A stretch of 64,000 nt of DNA from Shigella phage Sf13: the sequence record MF158040. One strand, given 5' to 3'. The first letter of the stretch is position 1. Every line of letters starts with the position of its first letter. Made by a program: the position numbers and the translations under genes. Of this stretch, positions 1-47,418 are shown one piece after another. The notes beneath the pieces are model-generated. The model saw only the letters and a program-made list of their open reading frames with translations, did not search any database and was not told the origin of the DNA.

Positions 1-10
1 CTTCCGACCT

Positions 11-634
11 ATGAAGACATTACATTTCAAGATTTATCCAGCAACATCACTTGGTCCAGAAGCACACTTATGGGCTGGTAAAGTCTATTCGACCACTGAT
101 ATTGAAAACTTAACCTTCACAGGAAGCTTCAGAAAGATTCTGGGTATTTCTTTACAAGATACTGTGGTAGGGGATGAAGAAGAAACTGAAAAGGCAACTT
201 TTGAGGCAACTCCGACTCTGAAGAAAGAGGCAACTCCAAAGGTTAGAACGATTGATGTTACTATAGAGGCTCCTACACACAGACTTGCAGATGTACCTGA
301 GCAAGAGTCTCGATACCAAACTAAAGAAGATGGTCATCAAACTCTGGTTGTAGATAACGTCAGAGATTACTTCAAGTATTTCTGTGATGCAAATCCACAT
401 AGTCATGCTTGGACTACACCACAAAAGAAATTTAACTCCATGTTGACCAGCGCTTGTGAAGATGCTAAAAAGAATGTGGAAGAGTTAAAAGAAGCAATCA
501 GTGTCACAGACCATGTGGTTAATAAGAATGACATTGAGTACACAGTAAGAATGATGTTAAAAGCTGGTTTCACACCTTATCAGATTGCTGAAGAGATTCA
601 AAGGCAATTCTACAACGCAATGGTGAAAGAATGA
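11..634 (+). CDS. hypothetical protein (possibly 5'-truncated at window edge)
   Basis: ORF track 207 aa; ATG at 11 but frame stays open to position 2, so the true start may lie upstream of the window; stop overlaps next start (ATGA). Confidence 0.45.
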   Translation: MKTLHFKIYPATSLGPEAHLWAGKVYSTTDIENLTFTGSFRKILGISLQDTVVGDEEETEKATFEATPTLKKEATPKVRTIDVTIEAPTHRLADVPEQESRYQTKEDGHQTLVVDNVRDYFKYFCDANPHSHAWTTPQKKFNSMLTSACEDAKKNVEELKEAISVTDHVVNKNDIEYTVRMMLKAGFTPYQIAEEIQRQFYNAMVKE

Positions 635-849
635 AAAAGTTTACAACTTTAGGTGAATACTGGAAGCTCTCTGTTTCTGAGCAGTACAGACGAGCTAAGA
701 AGACTAAACAGTGTTATGGCAAAATTGCCAGAGGTGATATCTTAGTATGTACTGAAGAATCACTTAAGAACGTTACTCCCAGAGGTAAGACATTCCAGAG
801 AATGATTGACAGAGAGTGGAATGCACGATTAAAGAGGATTGAACAATGA
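631..849 (+). CDS. hypothetical protein
   Basis: 72 aa ORF; ATG overlaps upstream stop; GGTGAAAG upstream. Confidence 0.45.
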   Translation: MKKFTTLGEYWKLSVSEQYRRAKKTKQCYGKIARGDILVCTEESLKNVTPRGKTFQRMIDREWNARLKRIEQ

Positions 850-1352
850 TTTACGAAGATTCAAGAGACCAGATTTCTTATGAGCAATCTAAGCACCATG
901 TATCTTTCAAGATTGTGAAAGCAAACGGTGATAAAGGGACTATTTCACACTTCGGAGGTGAAAATTGGTTTGGTACAGGATGCTTTGAAGGTTACAGCAG
1001 AGAGTATTTGAAAGCTTTCTACAGAGACTTCTCAGCCGACTATAACGAACTTATCAATCTGGAAAATAAGCGTAGAAATGCTGAGTATAACACCAGAGGA
1101 TGGGCAGGGATAGCAATTATGTTATCTGTAGTTCTTGCTATGATTTGTATCATCTCTTTTGGAAGTGTGTACATGCAAGATTTGACGTTTAACCAAGCTG
1201 AGAAGAAAATTTCTGAGATTTGGTTCTTGTATGTGATTCCAATAGTTGGTATCATCCTCTCATGTTGGAGAATGACGACTTACAAGAAGAGAATTGTAGA
1301 GTCTGAGAAGAATTTTGAAGAGGTAAGTAAAGAATGCAACCTAAAATTTTAG
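846..1352 (+). CDS. hypothetical membrane protein
   Basis: 168 aa ORF; two hydrophobic stretches (GIAIMLSVVLAMICIISFGSV, FLYVIPIVGIILSCW); start overlaps upstream stop. Confidence 0.5.
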   Translation: MIYEDSRDQISYEQSKHHVSFKIVKANGDKGTISHFGGENWFGTGCFEGYSREYLKAFYRDFSADYNELINLENKRRNAEYNTRGWAGIAIMLSVVLAMICIISFGSVYMQDLTFNQAEKKISEIWFLYVIPIVGIILSCWRMTTYKKRIVESEKNFEEVSKECNLKF

Positions 1353-1422
1353 TAATTTGTATCCGCTATGCTATTGCGGAAATGATTAACCAGAAAATAC
1401 TAAAAGATATCTCGGAGGGTAA

Positions 1423-1632
1423 ATGATTAGAACACCTGTCAAGCCTTTTGGCTTTAACACTCTGGAAGAGTTCAAAGAGTACCTTGAGAAAGGTTTCTAC
1501 AATGAACAACCAGTAACAGTGATTAAATCTGACTTAGCACAGCTTGTTGACATTGCTATTGCAGCAACTGAGACTAAGAAGAAAGATAAAAAGACTTCTT
1601 CAAAGAAAGATAAAGAATCTGCTGAAGAGTAA
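1423..1632 (+). CDS. hypothetical protein
   Basis: 69 aa ORF; GGAGGG Shine-Dalgarno 6 nt before ATG; Lys-rich C-terminus. Confidence 0.45.
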   Translation: MIRTPVKPFGFNTLEEFKEYLEKGFYNEQPVTVIKSDLAQLVDIAIAATETKKKDKKTSSKKDKESAEE

Positions 1633-1673
1633 TCTGTCAAGGGGTGTAAAAGCCCCTGTTTAGAGGAAAAACT

Positions 1674-1970
1674 ATGACTCCACAATCCAGAGGCGTTAAA
1701 GGTATTCATCCTCCAAAGGGTGGTTGGAAAGATAACACTTTCTATATCGTTGAAGTTGCTTACAAGCCACTTAACATGATTCATAAAGCGATGTTCTACA
1801 CAGGGTTCTGCGATGATAATGGTGTACCTGCTGGTTACAACTGGCTTATGAATGGTGGTTATGAAGAACTTTGCAACATTCAAGAAGCTTATTACTTGAA
1901 AGCTATTGCAGAGTTACCTGATGAGTTTCAAATTGAGAGAGATGAGGATTGGAAAGATGAAGAATGTTAA
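1674..1970 (+). CDS. hypothetical protein
   Basis: 98 aa ORF; AGAGGAAAA before ATG. Confidence 0.5.
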   Translation: MTPQSRGVKGIHPPKGGWKDNTFYIVEVAYKPLNMIHKAMFYTGFCDDNGVPAGYNWLMNGGYEELCNIQEAYYLKAIAELPDEFQIERDEDWKDEEC

Positions 1971-2391
1971 AGAGGTAGTGCGTAAAGCTTTGCTTAACAA
2001 CGGGACTAAAGATGATATGTACAAAGATATCGTTGCAGAATTTGGTTGTTCAAGACATACTGCAAAGGTTCTTCTTCATAGCTTTATCTGGGAGTGTTCA
2101 GAAGCTTACATGCAATCTGTAATAACTGAAGGGCTTGATATGTCTCTACCTGAACGCTTCAAAGAAGAGACTAAGGCTAGTTCCATAAAGCTAAACACAC
2201 TCTATATTGTAGAAACCGTTGATACAGGTGAACCAGTAGGCACAATACATATTGAAAGTATGTGTGATGGTAAGTTCCTTGGTTATGGTGAAGCAAACGC
2301 ATATAGTGCATTCTCAACCGCACACTGGATAGTTGAAAATGATGGGTATATTCAGGTCAATGGTAAAAATACTTTCAAACTTAAGATGTGA
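1957..2391 (+). CDS. hypothetical protein
   Basis: ORF track 1906..2391 begins with TTG; in-frame ATG at 1957 (MKNVKEV...) has a GAGGA 8 nt upstream and overlaps the upstream stop. Confidence 0.4.
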   Translation: MKNVKEVVRKALLNNGTKDDMYKDIVAEFGCSRHTAKVLLHSFIWECSEAYMQSVITEGLDMSLPERFKEETKASSIKLNTLYIVETVDTGEPVGTIHIESMCDGKFLGYGEANAYSAFSTAHWIVENDGYIQVNGKNTFKLKM

Positions 2392-3059
2392 TTATGGGAC
2401 ACCTACTGAAGAAGAGTTGGAAGAACTTAGCAGATATGGTTCCCCATCTGAAGAGGAAGAGAAAGAACTCCGAAGAATGGGAAGCAATTACTAAGAAATG
2501 TTTTAAGGATTTGATAGAGATGAAAAAGTTTGAACTTGAGAGTAATTATATCACATTTAGTGTTAAAGATGTAGACAGACACTTTACCAAAGATGAGAAA
2601 AGTGACCTGTATCGTCTTATTCATCGGATGAATTATCGTAGAAATCTAACAGGTAAAGAGCCACTTGAAGGTATCTTTGTCAAGAAGTCTTACCCGTTCT
2701 ATGAAGATACTTTGAAGAAACTCGAGATGTATGTTAAGCAGCAGAACCGTAAAGAGTTCTCTATGATTTCTCTTGGTGGACAACAAATGCTGGTTATGGA
2801 AGATATAAACCCTAAAAGAACTAACAAGGGTGTTTGTATCAAGGTCACAGGTAAAGAAGAATTTGTTGATTATGACATACTCAGACACATTATAGATGGT
2901 TTGGGTGCTGCACTGAACATGAATGAATACCATATTAGTTCACACCCGATTAAGGGTGACCAGATAATGATTCAGGTAAGAGAACGCCATAATGGGTTCA
3001 CACACTTCTTCCAAACTTCTAAAACTTCATTGCAAACTATGCTTAGTGAAGTGATGTAA
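2388..3059 (+). CDS. hypothetical protein
   Basis: 223 aa ORF; first codon appears to be GTG overlapping the upstream stop (ATG alternative at 2394); followed by a terminator. Confidence 0.45.
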   Translation: MIMGHLLKKSWKNLADMVPHLKRKRKNSEEWEAITKKCFKDLIEMKKFELESNYITFSVKDVDRHFTKDEKSDLYRLIHRMNYRRNLTGKEPLEGIFVKKSYPFYEDTLKKLEMYVKQQNRKEFSMISLGGQQMLVMEDINPKRTNKGVCIKVTGKEEFVDYDILRHIIDGLGAALNMNEYHISSHPIKGDQIMIQVRERHNGFTHFFQTSKTSLQTMLSEVM

Positions 3060-3067
3060 AACTATAC

Positions 3068-3092
3068 AGCCCCTTAATTGGGGCTTTTTATT
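3068..3092 (+). terminator. rho-independent terminator
   Basis: AGCCCC-TTAATT-GGGGCT hairpin followed by TTTTTATT, directly after the 2388..3059 stop. Confidence 0.6.
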
Positions 3093-4602
3093 GAGTAAAA
3101 TTTACTAAATTTATAATTTTTATAAAATTTGGGATTCACTCCGTTCATCTTGGGTCACCATGATATGTGATAAAATATCTATACCCTTCTAAACACCCTC
3201 TCTAAGCATCATCTCTATATAGTATTATATAGTATCTATATAGCCTCTTAGCCCCTAAATAGTGCTCTCTATATAGCCCTCTATAAAGCCTTCTAAGCCT
3301 ACCATTAATCAACCCTATACAATCACCTTCCTAACCTCTTCATAGCCCCTTAGAAGCCCCTATACTCATCTTAATCTCTAGGTAAACGATAGTACACTAT
3401 ATAGCAGAATCACTAGGTATTACTAAGCCTCTATATAGACTGTTATATAACACTAAACAGGTATTCCCTTCTAAGGCTTATCCTACAAGGTCTAACACGG
3501 TACTAACAAGGTCTCTTATAAGCCTGTTAATTCCTGTTTTATATAAGATAGTGTATAGATAGTTATTCAGTTCTATAAAATTTTTATAAAATAGACTAGG
3601 TAGTGTTTGTTTAGGAGTCTTTGGAGAATCTGAAAAATATCTACTTAGGGTGTATATCTGCTTGGTAGCCCTTAACAGCCCTGTAACATCCCCTTTGCAG
3701 TTTATTAAAATATCATTAACAATTTCTTAACAACTCTCTCAAGCTCTTAACATCTCTTCAGAGTTCTTAACAATCCCTTAACAGAACTAACAAGAGCTTA
3801 ACAAGTCTGTAACGTTGCTTACAAGAGTCTAACAAGTTGCTTATAAGTTGCTAAATAGTTAAATCTTAAGAGTTATTTTGTTAAGATAATTAACAAGGTG
3901 CTAACAAGTTCTAAACCTTTTTAACAGTCTCTTAACATGGTCACTATCTCTTGGTCTATAGTTCCCTATGTTTCTTAGTGATTCTCTATAAAGCCCTCTT
4001 AAAAGCTCTCTATAGCTCTGTATAGCCTCTTCTAAGCTTCTCCCTAGTAACTACACCCCAACTACCTGTATAGCTCTTTATAGGGCTTTCTAGGGGCTTA
4101 TACAGGTACTTCAAAGAGTCTAACAAGCTTTTAACATACCTCTAACAAGGATTTAACAAGGGGCTAACAAGTCTCTAATAAGCATAACTATGTAGCATTT
4201 GTTAAGATTTTGTTAAGAGAATGTAAAGGGGGCTAACTTTTACGTTACTTTTAAGGTTCTTTTACGTTACTTTGAAGACTCCATAACATACTTTAAAGCT
4301 ATTATCAAGCCCCTTTGTAACCATTCACAAGATTCTATCCAGCTTATAAGCTTATACCCTTATAAGATTCTTTTAAGGCTCTAGAAAGCTCTATAAAGGG
4401 CTTTTAAGAGTAGGTTAATATGATTGCTTAAGATGAGATGATAAGCCCGTATAGAGCGTTATAGAGCGTTTTAGGGATTGCCCTTCCCTTTCGGGTTATG
4501 GGCTTATATTTAAGTTGATTTGATAAGAGGATATAGAGTAAGCTATAGAGTTATTATTCTAAATGTATGGGATAGATTCTAGGAAGGTTTCTTTATAGAC
4601 GT
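3093..4602. other. 1.5 kb ORF-free region with short-motif arrays
   Basis: No ORF of 60 aa or more on either strand; + strand visibly G-poor; about 10 copies of (C/T)TAACAAG between 3490 and 4180; many CTATA(A/T)AG(C) motifs; tandem GTTATAGAGCG at about 4455-4480; bounded by inward-facing terminators. Confidence 0.5.
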
Positions 4603-4623
4603 AAAAAGCCCCATCTAAGGGGC
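4603..4623 (-). terminator. rho-independent terminator
   Basis: On the minus strand GCCCC-TTAGAT-GGGGC then TTTTT, just downstream of the 4666..4923 stop; a second GGGGC/GCCCC hairpin lies at about 4637-4651. Confidence 0.55.
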
Positions 4624-4665
4624 TGTAAAGGTGTCTGGGGCTATTTGCCCCGTTGCGGCGACTTG

Positions 4666-4923
4666 TTAGTTATTGAAGCCGTCAACTTCATAGTAAAGCG
4701 TGATAAGAGAATCACCCCAATAGTAAGAGGATTTGCCATCCTTTAAGACTTCTTGTTTTACTTCTTTCCAGAACCACTCAGATTGATTGTAGTCCTGAAT
4801 AGTTGCTTTTAGACACATATCAACCATGCCAAAAACATCGCCAGTTCCAACCATATCAAATTTAACATCTAATACATGGAAGCCAAAATTGTTAACAGTT
4901 GCGTGGATAGTAGCCATTTTCAT
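4666..4923 (-). CDS. hypothetical protein
   Basis: 85 aa ORF preceded by a type B cassette; GGAGA lies only 2 nt from the first ATG, so the second ATG at 4917 may be the real start. Confidence 0.5.
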   Translation of the reverse strand: MKMATIHATVNNFGFHVLDVKFDMVGTGDVFGMVDMCLKATIQDYNQSEWFWKEVKQEVLKDGKSSYYWGDSLITLYYEVDGFNN

Positions 4924-4983
4924 ATTCTCCAGTTTAGGAATTTTGTTTTAGTGGGGAAGTCTCCCTCCCCGTTGAAAGTAATA
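4924..4983 (-). promoter_or_regulatory. cassette type B (GC hairpin + conserved RBS)
   Basis: Minus sense: GGGGAGGGAGACTTCCCC hairpin then AAATTCCTAAACTGGAGAAT before ATG. Confidence 0.5.
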
Positions 4984-5247
4984 TTAATTCATTGCTGCAT
5001 AAGTTGCAAGTCTTTTTTCATTGTATTTTGTAAGAATCTCACAAGATAAAACGTCATACTTTGCAACGGCTTCAGATTTAGTTAAACCGAAATGGCTTAC
5101 AATTTCACCATTCATGAATCCGACTACTTCATAAGATTCTGCGATGATTTCACCGTTGAACCAATCACTTTCAATACGTTTGCAAAGTTGGATATCTTCT
5201 TTGTCAGTACCGATTTGTAACAGGATAGTGATTTCTTGATTATTCAT
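4984..5247 (-). CDS. hypothetical protein
   Basis: 87 aa ORF; ATG preceded by cassette with CTGGAGA. Confidence 0.5.
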   Translation of the reverse strand: MNNQEITILLQIGTDKEDIQLCKRIESDWFNGEIIAESYEVVGFMNGEIVSHFGLTKSEAVAKYDVLSCEILTKYNEKRLATYAAMN

Positions 5248-6237: not shown

Positions 6238-6579
6238 TTAGCTTATAAAGATTTTTTCTGGCTTAACATAGGTTAATGACTGTTTTTTAAGCAAATCAGA
6301 CCAAATGAGCGCGGCAATGTGACTATATCCCTTTTCTCTTAACTCCTGCATAGCTGATTTGCGAGTTTCGAAACGTGTAGCGTAGTATTCAGTGTTAAGG
6401 GTAGTTTTATTCCCTTCATTGTCAACATGTACAATCTGCATCACTTGAAAGGGGCTTACATCTTCTCCCCTGTTCCATTGCTCAAAGTACTTGAGACACT
6501 GCATAGGTTTCATTTTGTCGTTAACTTGGGTAGACCATGACGAATTTTCTTTATCGGTGATAATTGTTACATAGGCCAT
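6238..6579 (-). CDS. hypothetical protein
   Basis: 113 aa ORF; ATG start; type A cassette upstream. Confidence 0.5.
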   Translation of the reverse strand: MAYVTIITDKENSSWSTQVNDKMKPMQCLKYFEQWNRGEDVSPFQVMQIVHVDNEGNKTTLNTEYYATRFETRKSAMQELREKGYSHIAALIWSDLLKKQSLTYVKPEKIFIS

Positions 6580-7547: not shown

Positions 7548-8105
7548 TTATGCTGTTAAGTCGTTTATAACCGTTTCTGTTACGTTGCATTGCATGGTGT
7601 CAAAGATATCACAATATACATTGCTCATCCCATCACTACGTTGGACTATTTCTGCAATGTTGCGTAGTTCGTCTGGTACATATCCTAAATTTCTATTGTT
7701 TAGGTTAGGGACAAAGAAAGGCGCATACATAGCATTAAATTCAGTTGTGTAAACCTTTTTAATCCATTCTTTATCGAAATATTCTGTAAAGCTTGCTACG
7801 TCGCTCATGTTCTCACAGCTCCAGTCATCTTGTAAATCATCTTCTGGAATATCCAGTTCCAAGATAACAAGCTTTTGTGACTTCATTTGATAGGCTGCTG
7901 TAATGCTTGCGCTATCAAGCGCGTTTCTAATACCTTCATCTGTGATTTGTTCGTCATCCAGATTCTCTACATCATAGAACTTGTTAACAGGGTAGACGTA
8001 AAAACATCCATCCATATCAGAGCAATTCCAAGCTCCTGATGGTTTATCACCGCCATTGATAAGGTTTACAAAGTTTTCTTGTGTAGTACCATGAAAGCAT
8101 TTCAT
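7548..8105 (-). CDS. hypothetical acidic protein
   Basis: 185 aa ORF, markedly Asp/Glu-rich; ATG start after type A cassette. Confidence 0.5.
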   Translation of the reverse strand: MKCFHGTTQENFVNLINGGDKPSGAWNCSDMDGCFYVYPVNKFYDVENLDDEQITDEGIRNALDSASITAAYQMKSQKLVILELDIPEDDLQDDWSCENMSDVASFTEYFDKEWIKKVYTTEFNAMYAPFFVPNLNNRNLGYVPDELRNIAEIVQRSDGMSNVYCDIFDTMQCNVTETVINDLTA

Positions 8106-8189
8106 TTTAGATTCTCCAGTTTAGGATTGTTGGTAAAGCTCTTTATCTGGGGCTTATCTTATCTAACTATAAACCCCATGTAAAGCACT
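8106..8189 (-). promoter_or_regulatory. cassette type A
   Basis: TTTACA-TGGGGTTTATAGTTAGA-TAAGAT, CCCC, CTGGAGAATCTAAA-ATG. Confidence 0.5.
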
Positions 8190-8438
8190 TTATTTAGTTT
8201 TCTTTGTAAAGATTAGTTTAACGGCAACAGTTGGTAACTCTTCAATACTTGTGAACAAAGTCACTTTTTGAGTCTTGACATTATAGCCATACTTTGAACC
8301 ATAAGCCGTAAAACGGTTTACAATGTAACTGTAAGTTTTTGCAGTGTTATCTGGCATATGATATAAAAACGGCTTGCCAAGGTTATCAAGTTGTGTTAAG
8401 AGTCGGCATGTATCAGGGATATTCAACATATTAAACAT
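8190..8438 (-). CDS. hypothetical protein
   Basis: 82 aa ORF; ATG start after cassette. Confidence 0.45.
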   Translation of the reverse strand: MFNMLNIPDTCRLLTQLDNLGKPFLYHMPDNTAKTYSYIVNRFTAYGSKYGYNVKTQKVTLFTSIEELPTVAVKLIFTKKTK

Positions 8439-8523
8439 TTTCAGATTCTCCAGTTTAGGATTGTTGGGGCTTCTAACTTGCCCCGTTGATGAGTACTCTA
8501 CTACTATGCTTTTGCAATGTCAA
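8439..8523 (-). promoter_or_regulatory. cassette type B
   Basis: GGGGC-AAGTTAGAA-GCCCC hairpin plus RBS motif. Confidence 0.5.
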
Positions 8524-12376: not shown

Positions 12377-13171
12377 TTAGTTACGTGCTTCAACATAGCT
12401 TACGTTTTCATGTGTGATATAATCTTCTGCAAACTCTTCTGTAGTAGCATTGATATATACACTTGCATCATCGCCAAACGTTACCGCTCTGTGGTGGTGG
12501 CCTTGTAACGGGTGGGTAACTTGAGCGTTACTTCGATTGTACTTATCAACCGGAGGGTAACTGGTGTGTACCTTGCCATTACGCTTCACCTTGAGGGTAA
12601 CTTTATCCTTGCCTACCACAGCAACACCATCAAAGTATTGAGGCTCACTGAAGTTCTCCCAACCAGTAACAGGACTAGTCAACTGACTGTACATCTTATC
12701 TTCATAGACATACATATATACGTCAACATCTTTCATGGTCTGATTAATAATGGACAGCACAGCCATACTATCAAGACCACCAATCCCTGCACCAATCATA
12801 GGGAGTCCAACCTTCTTAAGCTGGTTTACTTTACAGTAGTTGTTAAGACGCTGTAAAGCTGCTTCTAAGGCATTGTATCGTGCATTTTTTCCAGTGATAA
12901 CCTGAGTATAAAGGTTAGCAATTCGACCCTGCTTCAAACGTGCTACAGAGATGTTACCAAGCATTAGATTCTTAGGGTTATGGTTTTCACCACCTACTGT
13001 AGCATAAACTTCAGCGTCAGTTTCATAAGCTTTTGGGTAGCGTTTAGCAATTGTTGCTGCGATACCTGCACCCATCAAGTTCATGCAGTTACAACCGTGA
13101 CCAATGATATCAAACTTCTTACCATCAAAGTCTTTAAAGATATCACCTTTAATAATTTTTACGATACCCAT
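12377..13171 (-). CDS. macrodomain protein (TARG1/DarG-like ADP-ribosyl hydrolase fold) with C-terminal extension
   Basis: KGDIF...DIIGHGCNCMNLMGAGIAATIAKRYP and LPMIGAGIGGLD resemble the TARG1-type macrodomain (GDLF...HCISEDCRMGAGIA...PRIGCGLD); about 110 aa unrecognised C-terminal region with a GHHH motif. ORF track start is 13228; ATG at 13171 (MGIVKIIKGD...) avoids a 56 nt overlap with the upstream gene. Start uncertain. Confidence 0.55.
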   Translation of the reverse strand: MGIVKIIKGDIFKDFDGKKFDIIGHGCNCMNLMGAGIAATIAKRYPKAYETDAEVYATVGGENHNPKNLMLGNISVARLKQGRIANLYTQVITGKNARYNALEAALQRLNNYCKVNQLKKVGLPMIGAGIGGLDSMAVLSIINQTMKDVDVYMYVYEDKMYSQLTSPVTGWENFSEPQYFDGVAVVGKDKVTLKVKRNGKVHTSYPPVDKYNRSNAQVTHPLQGHHHRAVTFGDDASVYINATTEEFAEDYITHENVSYVEARN

Positions 13172-13172
13172 A

Positions 13173-13373
13173 TTAGTAATGCTCCCAACGTTCGTTATCT
13201 TCAGATGGTTTAACTCGGTTACCTTCATGGTCTACCCATAAAGCACCGCAACCTTCACAGATTACTGGCATTGCTGAACCAGCTTCAAACTCTGCCTTTG
13301 TAAAGAGACCTTTTAAGTCTCCTGTATCTTTTCCAAACATCTCAACAGAACACTTAGTGCAGAAATCAGCCAT
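13173..13373 (-). CDS. zinc-ribbon protein
   Basis: 66 aa ORF with CTKC ... CEGC cysteine pairs; ATG start. Confidence 0.45.
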   Translation of the reverse strand: MADFCTKCSVEMFGKDTGDLKGLFTKAEFEAGSAMPVICEGCGALWVDHEGNRVKPSEDNERWEHY

Positions 13374-13602: not shown

Positions 13603-13903
13603 ACATCACCTTTTCAGTTAGCTCAAACAGGTCAACATGTTCGATGCTTTCAATATGGATACCAACTTTTGCATAGCGTTCTTTAACATTCTCTGCATTA
13701 AGCCATATCAGACACCAATGATTCTCTATGGATTCTTCAAGCTTGTCAACACAATCTTTAAAAGATTTCATATCTCCACGAGTACCAATGAATGCAACAA
13801 CCCCATAGAGAAACTCTTTACCACTGTGACAGACTTGTGCTGTACCAATTTCCTTTTCACCGTCTGAGAAGACGGCTACATAATTCTTACCATCTAGTTG
13901 CAT
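13577..13903 (-). CDS. hypothetical protein
   Basis: ORF track first codon appears to be GTG; the adjacent ATG at 13903 is used. Confidence 0.45.
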   Translation of the reverse strand: MQLDGKNYVAVFSDGEKEIGTAQVCHSGKEFLYGVVAFIGTRGDMKSFKDCVDKLEESIENHWCLIWLNAENVKERYAKVGIHIESIEHVDLFELTEKVMYESNSGKK

Positions 13904-13912
13904 CACTAACCC

Positions 13913-14182
13913 TCACTTCCTCGTTTTAAGGACTGCATAGATTTCTTTAGAATCTTCTCCGAACCATGTGTAGTGATTCTCGTTGATTTCAGGATGGTTG
14001 TCAACACGTATTTTGCAATCTCTTCCAACATGCTTAAGTTGTGCAGAAACACCCTGCATAAAGATGTGACAAGTTACATCATCCATAACCGTTGGCATAA
14101 TGTCAAATCTCATGTAAGTATTACTTGGTCTTGGTAACAGAAGATAACCTTCCACAAAAAATGTTTCATTCTTCTCTGTCAT
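13913..14182 (-). CDS. hypothetical protein
   Basis: 89 aa ORF; ATG start overlapping the o-spanin stop. Confidence 0.45.
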   Translation of the reverse strand: MTEKNETFFVEGYLLLPRPSNTYMRFDIMPTVMDDVTCHIFMQGVSAQLKHVGRDCKIRVDNHPEINENHYTWFGEDSKEIYAVLKTRK

Positions 14183-14448
14183 TGCTGCTTATTCCCTAAC
14201 AAAATCATATCAATCAAATTGTTTGCCTTGATAGTACATTCATAGTAACCATCACGATAAAACTCAAGAGCACTTGCAAGGTCTGCACCTTTAGTACCTT
14301 TAACCTCATACCGTGCTTCTTCTTGAGTGTACTTGTCACTCTCACTTACTTGGGAGTTTTTGAAGGTACTGTTCACTTTGTTCGTTGAACACCCTGACAT
14401 AAGGCTCAGTAGCACAATCATTAATAAAGACTGTCTTAGTTTTTTCAT
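14179..14448 (-). CDS. putative o-spanin (outer-membrane lipoprotein)
   Basis: Signal peptide with lipobox LMSGC (MKKLRQSLLMIVLLSLMSGCS); AAGAGG Shine-Dalgarno; starts inside the 3' end of the upstream gene in another frame. Confidence 0.5.
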   Translation of the reverse strand: MKKLRQSLLMIVLLSLMSGCSTNKVNSTFKNSQVSESDKYTQEEARYEVKGTKGADLASALEFYRDGYYECTIKANNLIDMILLGNKQQ

Positions 14449-14689
14449 AGTTCAATACCTCTTTGGTGTGTTTGTTTTTAGCAAGCACATCTTTCAAATC
14501 ATTTTTGTAATTGGAGCTAAGATTTGATAAACCCTCTTGATAAGCATCTTTAGCAACACTCACAAGTCTCTGGTTAGTTAACTCCTTTTCATTAACTTGG
14601 CTGGTCTTGTAAGTGTAACCTCCCCAAGCACCAACACCTGTTAAGAAAATGATTACAAAAGCTGCTTGACAAAATTCTTTAAACGTCAT
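14342..14689 (-). CDS. putative i-spanin (inner-membrane anchored)
   Basis: N-terminal transmembrane segment (FCQAAFVIIFLTGVGAWGGY) then a charged helical domain; overlaps the lipoprotein gene by about 107 nt. Confidence 0.5.
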   Translation of the reverse strand: MTFKEFCQAAFVIIFLTGVGAWGGYTYKTSQVNEKELTNQRLVSVAKDAYQEGLSNLSSNYKNDLKDVLAKNKHTKEVLNYEKTKTVFINDCATEPYVRVFNEQSEQYLQKLPSK

Positions 14690-14708
14690 TTAACTTCTCC
14701 TAGAAATG

Positions 14709-14729
14709 AAAAAGGCTCCCGAAGGAGCC
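14709..14729 (-). terminator. rho-independent terminator
   Basis: GGCTCC-TTCG-GGAGCC then T-run on the minus strand, after the 14742..15206 stop. Confidence 0.55.
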
Positions 14730-14741
14730 TCTATAATAACT

Positions 14742-15206
14742 TTAACCAAGAACTTTCGCAAGGACATTTGCTGCCATTGTTGAGGCTTTTGAAGCAGCAG
14801 CTACGCCAGCCTTAATGGTATTGTCCTTAATCGCAGAAACCGTTGCAGTATCTGTGAAGAGGTAAGTGGTAGTTTGAGAACCACTTGTAAAGGAAAGCAT
14901 AAGAGCAGTTTCCAGATTGAAAGAACGGTAAGGAGCACCGGATTGTACAATCCCTTTTGCACCTAACTCTGAAGCCATACCCATATCATAGATAGTCATC
15001 AGATTTTCTTTATGAGCAGTAGTTGAACCAACACCCTTAACGTGTTTTGTGACATTCAACATTGCACGATACTCACGAATGTTACCATCAGCTTTCACGT
15101 TTACTGCACGAAAGATTTTACCATCGAAATTACTTTTGATAATCTCACGAACTACCTGTGATTTGTTACCGGAAGCATCGATAGCTACTGTAATAATGTT
15201 TTGCAT
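14742..15206 (-). CDS. hypothetical protein
   Basis: 154 aa ORF with ATG start and its own downstream terminator. Confidence 0.5.
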   Translation of the reverse strand: MQNIITVAIDASGNKSQVVREIIKSNFDGKIFRAVNVKADGNIREYRAMLNVTKHVKGVGSTTAHKENLMTIYDMGMASELGAKGIVQSGAPYRSFNLETALMLSFTSGSQTTTYLFTDTATVSAIKDNTIKAGVAAASKASTMAANVLAKVLG

Positions 15207-15217
15207 GGTTTACTCTC

Positions 15218-15913
15218 TCAGTTTTTAACAAGCATTGTTTTGATGTGTGGTAAGATTCTTTCAACCTTTGCCACGTTCTTCACTGTATCTTCTATAAAGC
15301 ATACTACATCATAGTAGGGTAGAATGCAAGACTGAAGCATACGAACTTTCAAACTTTCTGCACTAATCTCATTGTCACCAAATCCACGCATAAACAGTAG
15401 GAAATCACTGTCTACATTCTCATTCAGGAAAAGATGTGTGACAACTCTTTGTGATTCACCACGAGCAGTTAGGAATCCTATATCAGCATTTCTTGATATA
15501 CCACACAGGATGTTAAAAACATATGTTGGTTTAGCTCTGCGAGAGTCTACCAAGTTAGTATATTGTGAGTAAGAACCATCATCTAACAGAGTTGCATTAA
15601 GTTTCTTGTCAAAGCTTGTAAGAACACCATCAATGTCTGCTAAGACCATTTTACGTTTTTCTTCCAAGTTCTTTGCAACCAAGATAAGGCTGTTACGACC
15701 AACATATACAGTTTTACCTGTTAGCAAATCCTGACAAGGAATCTGTGTCTTTGTTGAGTGGAAGTCTTCAAAGCTACACACAACATTTCTTGCTGTATCT
15801 GCAAAGTCAGCTTTAGCAATATCTGACCAACTTGCAGAACTGATATCTAAATCAAGTGGTTTAATATCATAAGCATGACACAGAACCATATCAAATTGTT
15901 TTGATTCGCTCAT
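15218..15913 (-). CDS. HAD-superfamily phosphatase-like protein
   Basis: HAD motif I-like LADIDGVLT; about 95 aa N-terminal extension with no P-loop; overlaps upstream gene by 23 nt. Confidence 0.45.
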   Translation of the reverse strand: MSESKQFDMVLCHAYDIKPLDLDISSASWSDIAKADFADTARNVVCSFEDFHSTKTQIPCQDLLTGKTVYVGRNSLILVAKNLEEKRKMVLADIDGVLTSFDKKLNATLLDDGSYSQYTNLVDSRRAKPTYVFNILCGISRNADIGFLTARGESQRVVTHLFLNENVDSDFLLFMRGFGDNEISAESLKVRMLQSCILPYYDVVCFIEDTVKNVAKVERILPHIKTMLVKN

Positions 15914-16463
15914 ATTTTACCTTTTTAATGTTTGTTGCAAACTCACATTGAGCCAGCAGTTTCATGTTATTGTACACATCTTGAGAGTATTGTCTAGCCT
16001 TTGGAATCTTGTATTTGTAACCAGCATTATAAGAAGCTAGGACACGCTTCATAGAGTACTTTCCATCTGGGTTACCATGAACCTTAGTCCAGAATAATAG
16101 CTCCTTATGAGCCTCTTTCGCTGAGTAATGGAAGTCACTTACTAGCTTCTTCTTAGCAACCTTTGGAGATACCTTGTTACGCTTTACAACAGTCTTCAAG
16201 TGATTCTGGAAAACACCATAATCATGAGTCTTTTTATTTTCTAACATGACACCTAATTGTGACTCTTGTAAGGCTATAGCTGCTAAAGGGATTCCCCAAC
16301 CTTTTCCCATCTGCCCTTCGCCATAGTTATATGCTTTTAACATATTAACTTTCTGGCTGATTGTAAGCTCTGGACAGTCAGATGCTGTAGCTAAATGTGC
16401 TGTAAAGAATAAGCACAAACCTAAAACAAATTTCTTCATTTGCACTCCTATTTTGTTAAACAT
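15891..16463 (-). CDS. secreted lytic transglycosylase-like protein
   Basis: N-terminal signal peptide (MKKFVLGLCLFFTAHLATA); SLT-like motifs LQESQLG and DYGVFQNH. Confidence 0.5.
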   Translation of the reverse strand: MFNKIGVQMKKFVLGLCLFFTAHLATASDCPELTISQKVNMLKAYNYGEGQMGKGWGIPLAAIALQESQLGVMLENKKTHDYGVFQNHLKTVVKRNKVSPKVAKKKLVSDFHYSAKEAHKELLFWTKVHGNPDGKYSMKRVLASYNAGYKYKIPKARQYSQDVYNNMKLLAQCEFATNIKKVKYERIKTI

Positions 16464-16500
16464 GCAGACAATTATACACTAACCTGCACATTTTTCAAAT

Positions 16501-41811: not shown

Positions 41812-44511
41812 ATGGAAAATGTAGATTTTGAAAACTTGCATTTAGTTGGTGATACAGAAACTGATGGGTTGTTGCTTGAGTTCACAAAAGCTCACGTTAT
41901 GGCCTTTGCAGATTACAAAGATGACAGTGACGAACCTCCTGTTTGGGTATTCACTGATGAACCTATCCTTGGTCACAAGTATACCAAATACATTAAAGGT
42001 GGCTTACGAGAAGGGGTTGAGTTTGCTTTAAAGGCAAAAAGACTTTGCATCCACAATGGTCTGGGTTATGACTGGTGGGTGTTTAACCACATTGCACCTG
42101 ATTTATGGAACTTTGATAATCCAAAGTGTAAACCTTGGGGTGATTTCTTCCAAGACTCACTTATTCAGTCTCGCGTTCAGTGGATGGATAGGCCAACACC
42201 AAAAGGCTACAAAGGTGCTCACGGATTGGCTGCGTGGGGTGCTCGTGTTGGTGTTCGTAAACCTGAGATTGAAGAGTGGGGTGTATGGAATGCAGAAATC
42301 CTTAACCGTGTTGTTGAAGATATCCGCATTAACGCCAAAGCAAAAAGGGCTATGGATAATGAGTATCTAAAACTGAAGAAGTGTGGTGTTGATACTTATG
42401 AAACATACATGAGAGCCAAGGAAACATCTTTTTGGATGAGTCAGCAAGCAATCAATGGTTGGAAAGCTGATATCAACAAAATGAAAAGTTGTATCAAAGA
42501 GTTGGATAAGATGACTTCTGACTTAGCTTCTGAGGTAGAACCATTCTTACCACCAACTATCAAAACAAAAGGTAAAGTTACTGGTGAAGAATTTGCCAAG
42601 TCATGGAATGAGTACGTAGAGACATTTGGTGGTGCAGATGGTTTGAAGAGAATCACAAAGTACCCTAAGACAAAATATCGTCAGCAGGTTCGTAATGGTG
42701 AGATGCAAAGTTACCCTATCAAGCCATATGGAAAACCAACTACAAAGATTTTCAGCATTGAAAAAAGAAATTGCTACACTCCAACTAACACCGTTACTGG
42801 AGAAGAGTACAAAGAAGGTTTTGTAGCGATGAAAGATGCTCGTGCAGTTTGCAATGAGTTAAATGCTAAAGTGGATAAGAAGTGCAAAGATTGGAAGCCA
42901 GTTAAGACAGTGAAGATTGTGAAGTACTACAACAACCATGTAGTTAATCACTTTGGTCTTGAATCAAGTCGATACACAGGATTGATTGATGCACCGTATA
43001 CACCTATTGAGTTTGAAGTGTCACGAATGACTCAGGTGGCTGTTGTTAAGGATTACTTGAAGACTTTAGGTTGGATTCCTGATGATTGGAATTACAAGAA
43101 GGATTCAGATGGTCGTCCTGTGAAAGTTTGTCGATTCAAAGATAACAAGAAAATGATTCGCAAGCACCCAAAATGGGATGAAATGGTTGAGCGTTGTGGA
43201 TTGAACTATGTTGAGCACGAAGGTATTCAGTACATTGAACATAACTGGTCTGTCAAAAAGTACACAGACTTGCTTGAACCTTGCTTGATTCGTACTTCAC
43301 CAAAACTGACTGAATCATCTTATGACACCATTGAAGGTGAACTTGGACAGAAGATTGCGAAGTACTATACTTTGATGCACCGACGCAGAACTATTGAGAA
43401 CTCAAAAGATGATGAAAAGGGCTGGTTGAACCAGATTCGTCCAGATGGTCGTTTGAGTGCTGGTGCAATGGTGTTTGGTACATCTACTGGACGTATGACG
43501 CAGTATGGTATTGTAAACGTACCTTCTGGTGCTGCCGTTTATGGGGAACCAATGAGGGCAGTTTGGATTTGTGAAGAAGGGACAAACGTAGTCTCTGTAG
43601 ATATGAACTCTGCACAGCTTGTTCTTCTTTGTAACTTTATGGGTGATAAGGATTTCACAAAGGCTGTAACTGAAGGTAAAGAAGAGATTGAGTTTGTTCG
43701 TCAAGAAGATGGTCGTTACTATTGCAAACACTTTGATGAATACTTGAACCCTGAAGTTGACAAGTATCTTCGTTATGACCACGAAAATGACCTGTATGTA
43801 GTTTACTCAGGTACTGATGCTCATACACTGAACAGCATCTACTTTAGTTTGAATGATGAGCAGGATATCTTGACTTGTCGTATGACTCAGGATGAAAATC
43901 TTCTTCACGAAATTAGTAAGGGTCGTAAGAAAGCTAAGAATGGTATCTATGCACTGTTGTTTGGTGCAGGTGATGAAAAGTTTGCTAAGACCATTAAAGC
44001 AGCTACCACTCAGGAAGGTGCATTAACTAAACAGACTTACTTTGTGCGTTTGCCGAAGATTAAGAAACTGTTAGACAACTTGGAAGCTGATTTCAAAGCA
44101 ACTAAGAAAGCACTTGAAGAGGTGTTTGGTAAAACTGCTGCAATCTCTAAAGGTGGTTTTGTGAAGGTTGCTGGAGCTTGGCTGTGGTGTAAGTCTCCAC
44201 ACAAGCTGTTAAATTACCTTTTGATGGGTTCAGAAAGTCAAGTCCAGAATGAAGCAATTAACCTTGCATGTCGTAGAGCATATGATGAAGGGTTGATGAA
44301 ACTAAATGGGCGTAAGCCAGCTATTGGAGCTAGACTTCTTCTGGCATACCACGACGAAAATAGTTGGGAATGTCCAGAAAGTATGACTCAAGAAGTTAAG
44401 GCTATTACTGACTGGATGTACGGACAAGCTTCTAAAAACCTTGGACTAAGGAAAGAAACCTTGGTAACAGGTACTGGTAAAGTTGGTAAGAGCTGGTTGG
44501 AAGTTCACTAA
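41812..44511 (+). CDS. DNA polymerase, family A, with 3'-5' exonuclease domain
   Basis: 899 aa; Exo I motif VGDTETDGL; motif B-like KGRKKAKNGIYALLFGAG; motif C-like LLAYHDENSWE. Confidence 0.8.
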   Translation: MENVDFENLHLVGDTETDGLLLEFTKAHVMAFADYKDDSDEPPVWVFTDEPILGHKYTKYIKGGLREGVEFALKAKRLCIHNGLGYDWWVFNHIAPDLWNFDNPKCKPWGDFFQDSLIQSRVQWMDRPTPKGYKGAHGLAAWGARVGVRKPEIEEWGVWNAEILNRVVEDIRINAKAKRAMDNEYLKLKKCGVDTYETYMRAKETSFWMSQQAINGWKADINKMKSCIKELDKMTSDLASEVEPFLPPTIKTKGKVTGEEFAKSWNEYVETFGGADGLKRITKYPKTKYRQQVRNGEMQSYPIKPYGKPTTKIFSIEKRNCYTPTNTVTGEEYKEGFVAMKDARAVCNELNAKVDKKCKDWKPVKTVKIVKYYNNHVVNHFGLESSRYTGLIDAPYTPIEFEVSRMTQVAVVKDYLKTLGWIPDDWNYKKDSDGRPVKVCRFKDNKKMIRKHPKWDEMVERCGLNYVEHEGIQYIEHNWSVKKYTDLLEPCLIRTSPKLTESSYDTIEGELGQKIAKYYTLMHRRRTIENSKDDEKGWLNQIRPDGRLSAGAMVFGTSTGRMTQYGIVNVPSGAAVYGEPMRAVWICEEGTNVVSVDMNSAQLVLLCNFMGDKDFTKAVTEGKEEIEFVRQEDGRYYCKHFDEYLNPEVDKYLRYDHENDLYVVYSGTDAHTLNSIYFSLNDEQDILTCRMTQDENLLHEISKGRKKAKNGIYALLFGAGDEKFAKTIKAATTQEGALTKQTYFVRLPKIKKLLDNLEADFKATKKALEEVFGKTAAISKGGFVKVAGAWLWCKSPHKLLNYLLMGSESQVQNEAINLACRRAYDEGLMKLNGRKPAIGARLLLAYHDENSWECPESMTQEVKAITDWMYGQASKNLGLRKETLVTGTGKVGKSWLEVH

Positions 44512-44520: not shown

Positions 44521-45048
44521 ATGCTTACAAAAAATCGTTTAAAGGAGCTTTTAGAATATGACCCCGATACAGGGGTCTTTACTTGGTTACCAAGAGATGG
44601 GAATACACGTTCTGTTAAAGTTTTTAATAGTAGGTATGCAGGGAAAGTAGCTGGCAGCATTCAAGTAGACTCTTCAAAACACAAGCAGTTGGTTATCTAT
44701 GTTGACAAAAAGAGTTACAAAGCACACAGACTCGCATGGCTGTATATGTATGGTGAACTCCCAGATGGTATAGTTGACCACAAAAACGGAGACTCGCTGG
44801 ATAATAGGTTTGTTAATCTAAGACTTGTTGATGATTATCAAAGTGCATGGAATAAAGGTAAGTTACTGACAAACAAATCTGGATTCAAAGGGGTTTCCAG
44901 AAAGAAGAGAACTGGAAGGTGGGTTGCACAAATAAGCTACAAAGGTAAGAAGATACATATAGGAACTTATGACACACCTGAAGAAGCCCATGAAGCTTAC
45001 TGTGAAGCTGCTATAAAACTCCACGGGGATTTTGCAAAACTTAGTTGA
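44521..45048 (+). CDS. HNH homing endonuclease with AP2-type DNA-binding domain
   Basis: HNH motif DHKNGDSLDNRFVNLRLV; AP2-like GVSRKKRTGRWVAQISYKGKKIHIGTYDTPEEAHEAY; begins 10 nt after the polymerase stop. Confidence 0.6.
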   Translation: MLTKNRLKELLEYDPDTGVFTWLPRDGNTRSVKVFNSRYAGKVAGSIQVDSSKHKQLVIYVDKKSYKAHRLAWLYMYGELPDGIVDHKNGDSLDNRFVNLRLVDDYQSAWNKGKLLTNKSGFKGVSRKKRTGRWVAQISYKGKKIHIGTYDTPEEAHEAYCEAAIKLHGDFAKLS

Positions 45049-45782: not shown

Positions 45783-46028
45783 ATGTTAAAATTATTGATA
45801 CCAGCTTTAGTAGTCTTACTGGTGGGGTGCAACCCTTCTTATGAGAATAAGGATGCCTCTTACAGACTTCCTCCAGAAATGCAAGACTGCAAGATTTATA
45901 AGCTTAATGGTGATGCCATTAGCAGGGATGTTATTGTAGTTCGCTGCCCAAATTCTCAGACTACAACTTCTTACAAGTATGGGAAGAATAGTCAGTCACA
46001 CACCACAGTTTTTGATGGAGGATATTGA
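45783..46028 (+). CDS. putative lipoprotein
   Basis: Signal peptide with lipobox LVGC (MLKLLIPALVVLLVGCNPS); GAGAGG Shine-Dalgarno. Confidence 0.5.
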   Translation: MLKLLIPALVVLLVGCNPSYENKDASYRLPPEMQDCKIYKLNGDAISRDVIVVRCPNSQTTTSYKYGKNSQSHTTVFDGGY

Positions 46029-47333: not shown

Positions 47334-47339
47334 AAGTTG

Positions 47340-47367
47340 TTGACAAAGGAAACATAGCAAGTATACT
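47340..47367 (+). promoter_or_regulatory. putative sigma70-like promoter
   Basis: TTGACA-N16-TATACT; flanked by inverted repeat CATAGCAAG ... CTTGCTATG. Confidence 0.4.
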
Positions 47368-47418
47368 TACCCATATACAAAATATGATATAGGAACTTGC
47401 TATGTTTTGGAGGTAGTT

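Follow-up and report, generated by a model that had tools for sequence, protein, structure and literature searches.

The overlapping reading frames considered here, one encoding a protein of 115 amino acids and the other a protein of 89, raise the question of whether together they constitute the spanins of Shigella phage Sf13 and, if they do, which wall-degrading enzyme they would act with. They lie within a stretch of 64,000 nucleotides from record MF158040 (called the window below). An initial annotation of the window read them as an overlapped i-spanin/o-spanin pair situated away from the endolysin, and this is also the reading given by GenBank annotation of related phages, by SpaninDB, and by the paper describing the genome of phage Moogle. 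Membership in the class of two-component spanins was judged by the criteria of Summer 2007 and Kongari 2018. By those criteria the pair is very probably the overlapped two-component spanin of a Mooglevirus (a Felix O1-like myophage), belonging to the JH2/Felix O1 families. The features discussed are collected in Table 1.

Table 1. Spanin genes of Sf13, their signals, and other genes considered (positions are those of the window)
Feature	Position	Strand	Basis or remark
i-spanin gene, 115 aa	14342..14689	-	ORF; N-terminal transmembrane anchor and predicted 88 aa periplasmic domain
i-spanin transmembrane anchor, about residues 6-26	14612..14674	-	hydropathy
i-spanin Shine-Dalgarno AGGAG	14697..14701	-	read from sequence; 7 nt 5' of ATG
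o-spanin gene, 89 aa precursor, 70 aa mature lipoprotein (predicted)	14179..14448	-	ORF; +1 frame relative to i-spanin
Lipobox L-M-S-G-C, residues 16-20	14389..14403	-	sequence; Cys20 predicted to be the lipidated first mature residue
o-spanin Shine-Dalgarno AAGAGG	14458..14463	-	inside i-spanin coding sequence; 9 nt 5' of ATG
Dual-coding overlap, 107 nt	14342..14448	-	i-spanin C-terminal motif in frame 0; o-spanin signal peptide and lipobox in frame +1
Intrinsic-terminator-like hairpin	14711..14732	-	AGAGGCTCC-TTCG-GGAGCCTTT, then T-rich tail; between 154 aa gene and i-spanin
154 aa ORF	14742-15206		between HAD gene and i-spanin
HAD/'polynucleotide kinase' gene	15218-15913		between 154 aa ORF and SLT-like gene
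SLT-like transglycosylase gene	15891-16463	same as spanins	1.2 kb upstream of spanins
Candidate class III holin, 124 aa	51411..51785	-	one N-terminal TMD; 97.6% identical to Sf19 gp58 'holin'

The larger protein begins MTFKEFCQAAFVIIFLTGVGAWGGYTY and has only one hydrophobic stretch (19-residue Kyte-Doolittle maximum 1.62, from residue 6), which bears out the N-terminal anchor proposed at the outset. The same anchor is aligned across i-spanin homologues, and SpaninDB gives the i-spanin of Moogle an N-terminal part of 27 aa and a periplasmic domain of 88 aa from residue 28. In Sf13 as well, the chain beyond the anchor would lie in the periplasm, as expected of an i-spanin, given the predicted orientation. 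An AF2 single-sequence model of low confidence (pLDDT about 50) places a helix at residues 3-21, no more than a weak hint of helical content. Compared with PHROGs, the protein matches phrog_1152, 'Rz-like spanin' (E=6.8e-38), and tblastn finds it in 290 phage records. The alignment of homologues shows E82, K83, F88, N90, C92, Y97, N102, and E103 to be invariant, and the conserved C-terminal motif can be written EK..F.N.C....Y....NE. The Shine-Dalgarno of the gene stands in an identical context in the SpaninDB entry for the Moogle i-spanin, tttttcattt.tAGGAGaagttaa. Pfam yielded no family for the i-spanin at E<=0.1, hence no match to lambda Rz, and Pfam and NCBIfam together offered a spanin family for neither protein, just generic lipoprotein-signal matches. 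A search of PDB sequences with profiles of the i- and o-spanin families found no solved relative.

The smaller protein, whose precursor reads MKKLRQSLLMIVLLSLMSGC/STNK..., has all of the properties claimed for it initially: the LMSGC lipobox, an overlap of 107 nt in a different frame, and its own AAGAGG. The lipobox and the residues that follow it read MKKLRQSLLMIVLLSLMSG/C-S-T. Cys20 is invariant in all six of the aligned homologues, and the +2 residue is S or T in each of them. Since the +2 residue in Sf13 is serine and not aspartate, the lipoprotein is predicted to be sorted to the outer membrane. A predicted signal-peptidase-II lipobox cysteine with a residue other than Asp at +2 is what defines an o-spanin, and SpaninDB reports for the close relative EC6 a lipobox, IMSG/C, accepted by LipoP. 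Besides C20, the residues G51, G54, D66, C71, N76, and L78 are invariant amongst homologues. The protein contains no proline, and its AF2 single-sequence model is of low confidence (pLDDT about 50), again a weak hint of helical content at most. It belongs to phrog_4180, which has no assigned function (E=4e-49), and matches the spanin family phrog_456 weakly; its one match in Pfam is unrelated and below threshold. The Michonne record marks a ribosome-binding site at the position of the o-spanin Shine-Dalgarno sequence.

Might the 89 aa frame nonetheless be a chance ORF, with only the 115 aa protein real? In the output of many gene callers and in several GenBank records the o-spanin is missing or begins at an internal GTG, as in Sf19, and one paper reports that a relative, vB_Si_DR094, lacks it. 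The ORF and its lipobox are intact, however, in about 300 phage records found by tblastn, that of vB_Si_DR094 included; a lack of conservation in related phages was one of the outcomes that the initial annotation had named as refuting its reading. A six-frame scan of the 64 kb for lipoprotein signals found two ORFs, the o-spanin and a second at 45783..46028(+), against 0.23 expected per shuffle. The rarity of such signals and the intactness of the ORF in so many records argue that the o-spanin frame is more than chance. The second lipoprotein was weighed as another spanin, or a unimolecular one, and set aside: it lacks a C-terminal TMD, and no membrane-anchored partner adjoins it.

Substitutions relative to Felix O1 tell the same story. 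The o-spanin ORF starts 241 nt into the i-spanin ORF, which puts it in the +1 frame and 0.69 of the way along the i-spanin. Sf13 and Felix O1 agree at 88.8% of nucleotides within the overlap, compared with 75.5% and 74.2% in the two stretches that code for one protein each, and substitutions within the overlap have no third-position bias. In the region coding for the o-spanin only, 28 of the 42 substitutions fall at position 3 of the o-frame codons; read in that frame, 26 are synonymous and 16 non-synonymous, whereas the remaining frames give 5/37 and 4/38. The third-position bias is thus confined to the o frame. Judged from these substitutions, purifying selection acts on both frames. With a Shine-Dalgarno sequence of its own and residues invariant down to 30% identity as well, the idea of a chance ORF is effectively refuted.

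Other properties by which two-component spanins are recognized are also found here. The genes overlap, with that of the i-spanin first. Each protein has one periplasmic cysteine, C92 in the i-spanin and C71 in the o-spanin, invariant in the alignments; these and the lipobox cysteine are invariant down to 22-35% identity. In the spanin survey (Kongari 2018 criteria), 507 of 528 systems had at least one periplasmic cysteine. C92 and C71 could therefore serve for intermolecular disulfide linkage, the disulfide itself being predicted. The predicted periplasmic lengths, 88 and 70, sum to 158 residues, which would suffice to span the periplasm, as combined lengths observed for two-component spanins range from 62 to 300.

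In close relatives the pair is already known and ordinary. The locus from 13900 to 16500 is 99.1% identical to that of Shigella phages Sf19 and Sf17 (Mooglevirus, Ounavirinae), and the pair is annotated as i-spanin/o-spanin in Sf19 (gp113/gp114), Sf17, Citrobacter phage Michonne (gp139/gp138), Mordin, Sf15, and others, the Michonne o-spanin having the identical length of 89 aa. Compared with its counterparts in Sf15, Sf14, KPS64, and Michonne, the i-spanin is 98-100% identical; compared with that of Felix O1, it is 76.5% identical. For the mature o-spanin, identity to the proteins of Mordin, HP1, and Sf16 is about 96-99%, and the full precursor shares 82% of its residues with ORF21 of Felix O1. 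SpaninDB (Kongari et al. 2018) groups the proteins of Felix01, JH2, Moogle, and Mushroom into the JH2 i- and o-spanin families, under a rule that asks for 40% identity or more across 40% or more of the length. The full-length identities to Felix O1 place both Sf13 proteins within these families, and both are near-identical to the Moogle entries. Its entries for these phages give the architecture 'ovl', a length of 348 nt, an overlap of 107 nt, proteins of 115/89 aa, and periplasmic parts of 88/70 aa. Sf13 agrees with Felix01, JH2, and Moogle in lengths, overlap, frame, and ribosome-binding-site context, and the neighbourhood is alike (rIIB, Vs.1-like gene, HAD gene, 154 aa gene, spanins). Apart from a few amino-acid substitutions, there is no difference of substance. 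Inner and outer spanins are named in the papers on Moogle (PMC4319497) and Michonne (PMC4591319), which also describe scattered lysis genes, an arrangement that the Moogle paper likens to that of Felix O1-like phages.

The pair matters little except for getting annotation right. The o-spanin is missing from many public records of this phage group or begins too late in them, and the paper on vB_Si_DR094 reports it absent where it is present. The start at an internal GTG in the Sf19 record, through which the signal peptide is lost, is an annotation error, not biology. The lipobox, the +1 overlap, and the conserved cysteines are criteria that would mend such records.

Homologues that are far more distant bear on what the pair does. 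Those of phiEco32-like phages (KBNP1711), of the Sashavirus Sergei, and of Ounavirinae of Erwinia and Pectobacterium share 22-28% identity with the i-spanin and 30-35% with the o-spanin. They are alike in overlapped architecture and in the C-terminal motifs EK..F.N.C..Y...NE (i-spanin) and D.Y..C....N.L (o-spanin), and all six of the divergent homologues examined retain the overlapped lipobox ORF. They differ in genomic context, and some of the i-spanins have longer C-terminal tails. In Pectobacterium phage Wc4-1, the gene directly upstream of the spanin homologues encodes a P22-like (GH24/P22-type) endolysin, and in Salmonella phage Sergei the spanin homologues end a holin-endolysin-holin-spanin cassette.

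Perhaps the pair has merely the topology of spanins and serves in the envelope in some way unrelated to lysis, for instance by excluding superinfection, masking receptors, or remodelling the envelope. The phage outer-membrane lipoproteins Llp of T5 and Cor of phi80 do act in exclusion. The Sf13 pair sits downstream of rIIA and rIIB, on the same strand, among small genes with no assigned function, the o-spanin lacks the proline-rich region of Rz1, and its phrog has no assigned function. Also, the literature on spanins of the Felix O1/JH2 type was found to hold no experimental test of the family, that is, no report of outer-membrane disruption or of complementation of lambda Rz/Rz1. But an obligate type II membrane protein overlapped by an outer-membrane lipoprotein is the signature of spanins, Ounavirinae, phiEco32-like phages, and Sashavirus phages all retain the pairing, and distant homologues lie in bona fide lysis cassettes. 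SpaninDB, moreover, makes this pair the spanin of Felix01, JH2, and Moogle; the window has no other spanin candidate by the lipoprotein-signal scan; and the spanins of T4 are outside a lysis cassette as well. A non-lytic role is accordingly very improbable.

If the pair is a spanin, as preferred here, with what enzyme would it act? The initial annotation took the transglycosylase upstream to be the nearest muralytic candidate, two genes away with a HAD phosphatase between. The distance needs amending, as the transglycosylase gene is the third upstream, with both the 154 aa ORF and the HAD gene intervening. The label of HAD phosphatase is a reasonable one: the protein has a DIDGVLT motif and matches polynucleotide-kinase PHROGs solely through residues ~77-219, and no P-loop kinase motif was seen in its N-terminal ~80 residues. 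The resemblance to PseT of T4 is at the level of motifs, to the phosphatase domain only, the kinase domain being absent. The hairpin between the 154 aa gene and the i-spanin is annotated as a terminator in the Michonne record. Abutting it is a promoter-like site (14761-14733, 9/12 matches), too weak to interpret. The spanin pair lies behind a terminator, in the same-strand block as rIIA/rIIB and not in a late lysis cassette. This counts against the spanin reading, as do the proline-free o-spanin, the sparse prediction of coiled coil, the dissimilarity to the spanins of lambda and T4, the low confidence of the AF2 models, and an o-spanin PHROG with no assigned function.

The transglycosylase might be the muralytic partner in a local lysis module, possibly one independent of a holin. 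In favour of this are a Sec-type signal peptide, the SLT catalytic motifs QES, VFQ, and YNAG as read by eye, and a weak, below cut-off match to Pfam SLT (E=0.002). Its gene shares the strand of the spanins, is preceded by a strong promoter-like site at 16498-16471, and bears the label 'putative lysin' in some records. Relatives annotate it from an internal Met (549 nt), so the real start is probably 16439. It is, however, a homologue of Vs.1 of T4, found in 1927 phage records that include T4-like phages with an endolysin of their own, which makes it an unlikely partner in lysis. The terminator separates its operon from the spanins, the T4 pseT-spanin region as retrieved contains no vs.1 gene, and the spanin homologues of Wc4-1 adjoin a GH24/P22-type endolysin rather than a Vs.1 homologue.

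In addition, the lineage has a canonical GH24 endolysin and a candidate holin elsewhere. A tblastn search of the window with the endolysin of Sf19 (gp17) found none, as the gene maps outside the left edge, about 2.2 kb beyond it by the map of the relative. The initial annotation identified no holin; the window does contain a candidate, whose Michonne homologue is called a 'putative class-III holin' (PMC4591319) and whose PHROG, 4038, has no assigned function. A paper on the holin and endolysin of phage UE-M6 was set aside as experimental evidence on this candidate, since UE-M6 belongs to the Schitoviridae and is unrelated. In Sf19 coordinates, about 17 kb separate the spanins from the endolysin and about 38 kb separate them from the holin; in the window, the candidate holin is 37 kb away from them. 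Location in a lysis cassette, common for spanins though not required, is not seen in Sf13. Partnership with the transglycosylase is, all told, very improbable.

A bolder variant would have the Vs.1-like transglycosylase and the spanins provide a back-up or holin-independent route for breaching the envelope, or, more mildly, would make the spanins a mechanistically distinct type. Were such a route real, it would explain why the spanins are beside the Vs.1-like gene rather than the GH24 endolysin. The notion of a distinct type can point to proteins that are proline-free, nearly devoid of predicted coiled coil, and equipped with one cysteine per subunit, and to the same nucleotides encoding the i-spanin's most conserved motif as well as the signal peptide of the o-spanin. 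Even so, we consider this variant very improbable.

With a conventional two-component spanin, the lysis genes predicted for a Mooglevirus (holin, endolysin, and spanin) would be complete. By analogy with Rz/Rz1 of lambda and PseT.3/PseT.2 of T4, the i- and o-spanin may bind through their periplasmic C-terminal regions, and disulfide-linked complexes would cross the periplasm through the peptidoglycan mesh. They would remain inert until the candidate holin releases the GH24 endolysin; upon degradation of the murein, they would complete lysis by fusing the inner membrane with the outer or by disrupting both. Since the wall itself restrains spanins, their genes need not adjoin that of the endolysin, as has been published before for Felix O1-like phages and T4.

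The two best-known spanins offer a measure of how typical the pair is. It resembles Rz/Rz1 of lambda in combining an N-terminally anchored inner-membrane protein with an outer-membrane lipoprotein in the +1 frame, in having periplasmic cysteines for homotypic disulfides, and in presumably acting at the last step of lysis. The lambda architecture is fully embedded, however, whereas the Sf13 genes overlap and lie outside a lysis cassette. The mature o-spanin has 70 aa and no proline, unlike Rz1 of lambda, with 40 aa and a penta-proline stretch, and the i-spanin has 115 aa with weak or no prediction of a coiled coil, in comparison with 153 aa for Rz. Pepcoil, as reported in SpaninDB, predicts no coiled coil in the i-spanins of Felix01 and JH2 and one in that of Moogle. 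The lack of a Pfam match, the absence of proline, and zero to one predicted coiled coils in family members, where two would be expected of an Rz-type i-spanin, place the pair outside the Rz/Rz1 sequence families.

The pair is closer in size to PseT.3/PseT.2 of T4 (a 117 aa i-spanin and an o-spanin of 83 aa from a 99 aa ORF), which also have no proline-rich region and lie outside a holin-endolysin cassette. In both phages the spanins are one gene from a gene of the polynucleotide kinase/phosphatase type, and T4 likewise has rIIA/rIIB and vs.1 homologues. But the T4 genes are of the separated type, sharing 4 nt where those of Sf13 share 107 nt, the periplasmic cysteines of the i- and o-spanin number 0 and 2 rather than 1 and 1, and the order in T4, alc > pseT.3 > pseT.2 > pseT.1 > pseT, puts the spanins upstream of pseT, while in Sf13 they are downstream of the HAD gene. 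Homology was rejected, there being no similarity beyond TMD or lipobox: BLASTP aligned just one of the pairs, at E=3.1, and hhalign gave probabilities of 2% and 6%, covering TMD or lipobox only. The likeness to the T4 pseT neighbourhood noted initially therefore holds for position, with the gene order reversed, and is an analogy only. Since the Sf13 pair differs in composition from the prototypes of both lambda and T4, the Felix O1/JH2 family would make a reasonable third model of spanins.

Two overlapping ORFs on the minus strand, of 115 and 89 amino acids, are present exactly as the initial annotation claimed, their coordinates and signals having been checked. The o-spanin starts 241 nt inside the i-spanin ORF, at 0.69 of the i-spanin gene length, hence in the +1 frame. 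The i-spanin has a single strongly hydrophobic stretch, at its N-terminus (19-residue Kyte-Doolittle windows peak at 1.62, starting at residue 6), and the o-spanin N-terminus has basic residues, a hydrophobic core, and the lipobox LMSG/C, with Ser at +2. When all 64 kb were scanned in six frames, only two ORFs had a lipoprotein signal (shuffled sequence averages 0.23), the o-spanin and 45783-46028(+). The latter encodes 81 aa (MLKLLIPALVVLLVG/CN; phrog_902, function unassigned) and was rejected as a spanin, having neither a C-terminal TMD nor a membrane-anchored neighbor; its product may be a lipoprotein that acts in exclusion or masks a receptor.

Features of the spanin locus and the sequence just upstream
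Feature	Position	Strand	Description
i-spanin ORF	14342-14689	-	115 aa, begins MTFKEFCQAAFVIIFLTGVGAWGGYTYKTSQ
o-spanin ORF	14179-14448	-	89 aa, begins MKKLRQSLLMIVLLSLMSGCSTNK
Dual-coding overlap of both spanin ORFs	14342-14448	-	107 nt
o-spanin Shine-Dalgarno	14463-14458	-	AAGAGG, 9 nt ahead of o-spanin ATG
i-spanin Shine-Dalgarno	14701-14697	-	AGGAG, 7 nt ahead of i-spanin ATG
Terminator-like hairpin	14732-14711	-	Parts Vs.1/HAD/154 aa genes from spanins
154 aa ORF	14742-15206		Between i-spanin and HAD-type gene

Within PHROGs, the i-spanin matches phrog_1152 ('Rz-like spanin', E=6.8e-38), and the o-spanin matches phrog_4180 (no assigned function, E=4e-49) and, weakly, the spanin phrog_456. 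By tblastn, 290 phage records contain the i-spanin and 300 the o-spanin frame, annotated or not. The overlapped lipobox ORF is kept in all five of the divergent loci that were extracted (Felix O1, Erwinia phage Fifi318, Pectobacterium phage Wc4-1, phiEco32-like KBNP1711, and Sashavirus Sergei). Residues E82, K83, F88, N90, C92, Y97, N102, and E103 are invariant in the i-spanin alignment (22-28% overall identity to distant homologues), as are C20 (the lipidated Cys), G51, G54, D66, C71, N76, and L78 in that of the o-spanin (30-35%). When the window is compared with Felix O1, 28 of the 42 substitutions in the segment encoding only the o-spanin are at third positions of o-frame codons; in that frame 26 are synonymous and 16 non-synonymous, versus 5/37 and 4/38 in the other two. 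The segment encoding only the i-spanin has a third-position bias likewise, in the i frame. The overlap shows no positional bias in this comparison and is more conserved (88.8%, versus 75.5% and 74.2% in the single-coding segments), as expected of dual coding. Non-conservation of the lipoprotein ORF was the refutation named at the outset; by database occurrence, by the divergent loci, and by o-frame bias, the ORF is conserved. Conservation and the codon-position statistics effectively exclude a lipoprotein frame that is open by chance.

Over a 2.6 kb segment around the pair, identity is 99.1% with Shigella phages Sf19 and Sf17 and 97-99% with other genomes of Mooglevirus (Ounavirinae, Felix O1-like myophages); a further 213 Felix O1-type records match at 60-80%. 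Both ORFs already carry the names i-spanin and o-spanin in Sf19, Sf17, Sf15, Michonne, Mordin, and others. Kongari et al. (2018, PMC6139136) list Felix01, JH2, Moogle, Mushroom, and WV8 in a 'JH2' i-spanin family of 15 members, which also contains phiEco32 and KBNP1711, and in a 'JH2' o-spanin family of 11 members with overlapped architecture. In their supplementary tables, Felix01, JH2, and Moogle are each classed 'ovl', with a 348 nt i-spanin, an overlap of 107 nt, proteins of 115 and 89 aa, and 88 aa and 70 aa, respectively, in the periplasmic domains; the numbers initially reported for the pair are the same as those tabulated. The overlapped i-spanin/o-spanin reading is essentially correct, matching the annotation of near-identical phages and this catalogue, and it is not new, the pair having been annotated, catalogued, and published for the genus.

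Some existing records call for correction. Sf19 gp114 (6280-6477), annotated as o-spanin, has its start set at an internal GTG (Val25), an annotation error through which signal peptide and lipobox are lost. Phage vB_Si_DR094 was reported to have an i-spanin only (PMC8300805); contrary to that report, tblastn finds a full 89-codon o-spanin frame (MZ327262.1 62346-62612, 82% identity). Records named Staphylococcus phage SA1 (GU169904.1 125695-126202) and Campylobacter phage A126 (MG065668.1 38127-38819) contain, respectively, a Felix O1-like spanin pair (76-82% identity) and a Felix O1-like HAD gene; both are probably contaminated or mislabeled.

The whole window is collinear with Sf19, reversed (1-5247 corresponds to Sf19 5812-1, and 5248-64000 to Sf19 90375-30231). 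The DNA polymerase gene (41812-44511) is followed immediately by an HNH_3 + AP2 homing endonuclease gene at 44521-45048(+) (Pfam E=3e-15 and 3e-14), an insertion polymorphism, since the Sf19 genome lacks sequence at the site. The region 47338-49039 does not align to Sf19, which has a different 3.6 kb in the corresponding place; it encodes a 128 aa protein that carries a signal peptide (47407-47793; phrog_4332, function unassigned) and contains an ORF (47991-48290) resembling a small HTH protein.

The transglycosylase gene at 15891-16463(-) was initially placed two genes upstream of the spanins. It is in fact three, the 154 aa ORF and the HAD gene, 15218-15913(-), intervening. Its product is a Sec-signal SLT-type lytic transglycosylase homologous to T4 Vs.1: the Pfam SLT match is below threshold (E=0.002), QES, VFQ, and YNAG motifs are visible, and the Felix O1 record likens the protein to a T4 'hypothetical 20.7 KD protein in vs-regB intergenic region'. 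Translation probably begins at an internal Met (16439), and the segment 16498-16471 strongly matches a sigma-70-like promoter. Relatives occur in 1927 phage records by tblastn, T4-like phages among them, and some carry the annotation Vs.1. The T4-like phages rely on an endolysin of their own, which makes this protein an unlikely endolysin partner of the spanins. The terminator also argues against such a partnership, as does Wc4-1, where a P22-like endolysin gene stops 8 nt ahead of the i-spanin homologue (in that record the o-spanin lacks an annotation); taken together, we consider it highly improbable. A weak promoter-like site within 14711-14761(-) (TTGCGA-17-TATTAT, 9/12 matches) ends one base before the hairpin; speculatively, its transcript would begin within the hairpin and could escape termination.

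The HAD gene is named 'polynucleotide kinase' in relatives, and the polynucleotide-kinase PHROGs match only its HAD-phosphatase-like region (DIDGVLT motif, residues ~77-219). The name is probably too strong, as no P-loop kinase motif was seen within the N-terminal ~80 residues. About 1 kb downstream of the spanins, 12377-13228(-) encodes a 283 aa macro-domain protein (Pfam Macro E=4e-8; phrog_335 'phosphatase'), whose counterpart in Felix O1 is noted as similar to a hypothetical protein of the T4 tk-vs intergenic region.

Lysis genes are dispersed in this lineage. Sf19 gp17, a GH24 lysin (Sf19 8039-8503), maps ~2.2 kb past the left edge of the window, and tblastn found no copy in the 64 kb. 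Sf19 gp58, annotated 'holin', has a counterpart at 51411-51785(-) (97.6% identity), which stays a candidate holin because its PHROG has no function. In Sergei, a cassette runs from a holin through an endolysin and a second holin to the homologous i-spanin and, last, the o-spanin. Perhaps the pair serves some non-lytic role in the envelope, but the conserved pairing and the homologues within lysis cassettes make this exceedingly improbable.

We infer spanin function, strongly, from bioinformatics rather than regard it as demonstrated. Topology signals, dual-frame selection, and, in both subunits, an invariant Cys and C-terminal motifs are observed here; the other steps are borrowed from the lambda Rz/Rz1 and T4 paradigms (PMC6139136). 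By analogy, the type II inner-membrane subunit and the outer-membrane lipoprotein would bind through their periplasmic C-terminal regions, and the complexes, disulfide-stabilized and threaded through the murein, would build up harmlessly until a holin frees the endolysin. The spanins would then draw both membranes together, destroying the outer membrane.

In the supplementary tables of PMC6139136, JPred assigns ~66% of the periplasmic domain of the i-spanin to helix and gives the o-spanin little regular structure, and Pepcoil predicts one coiled coil in the Moogle i-spanin and none in those of Felix01 and JH2. Single-sequence AF2 models of both spanins are of low confidence (pLDDT ~50) and at most hint that the i-spanin is all-helical and that the o-spanin has a disordered linker leading into a helix at the C-terminus; no related solved structure was found for either. 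The likeness to the T4 pseT-spanin region, as initially proposed, is real as an analogy of neighborhood but not as homology. T4 transcribes alc, pseT.3 (i), pseT.2 (o), pseT.1, and pseT in that order, placing spanins before the kinase/phosphatase gene, whereas in the window they follow the HAD gene. Neither spanin resembles its T4 counterpart beyond anchor or lipobox, and the HAD protein resembles the PseT phosphatase domain at the level of motif only (DxDG.L). The mature o-spanin contains zero proline, and in composition the JH2/Felix O1-type spanin family is unlike both the lambda and the T4 prototypes.
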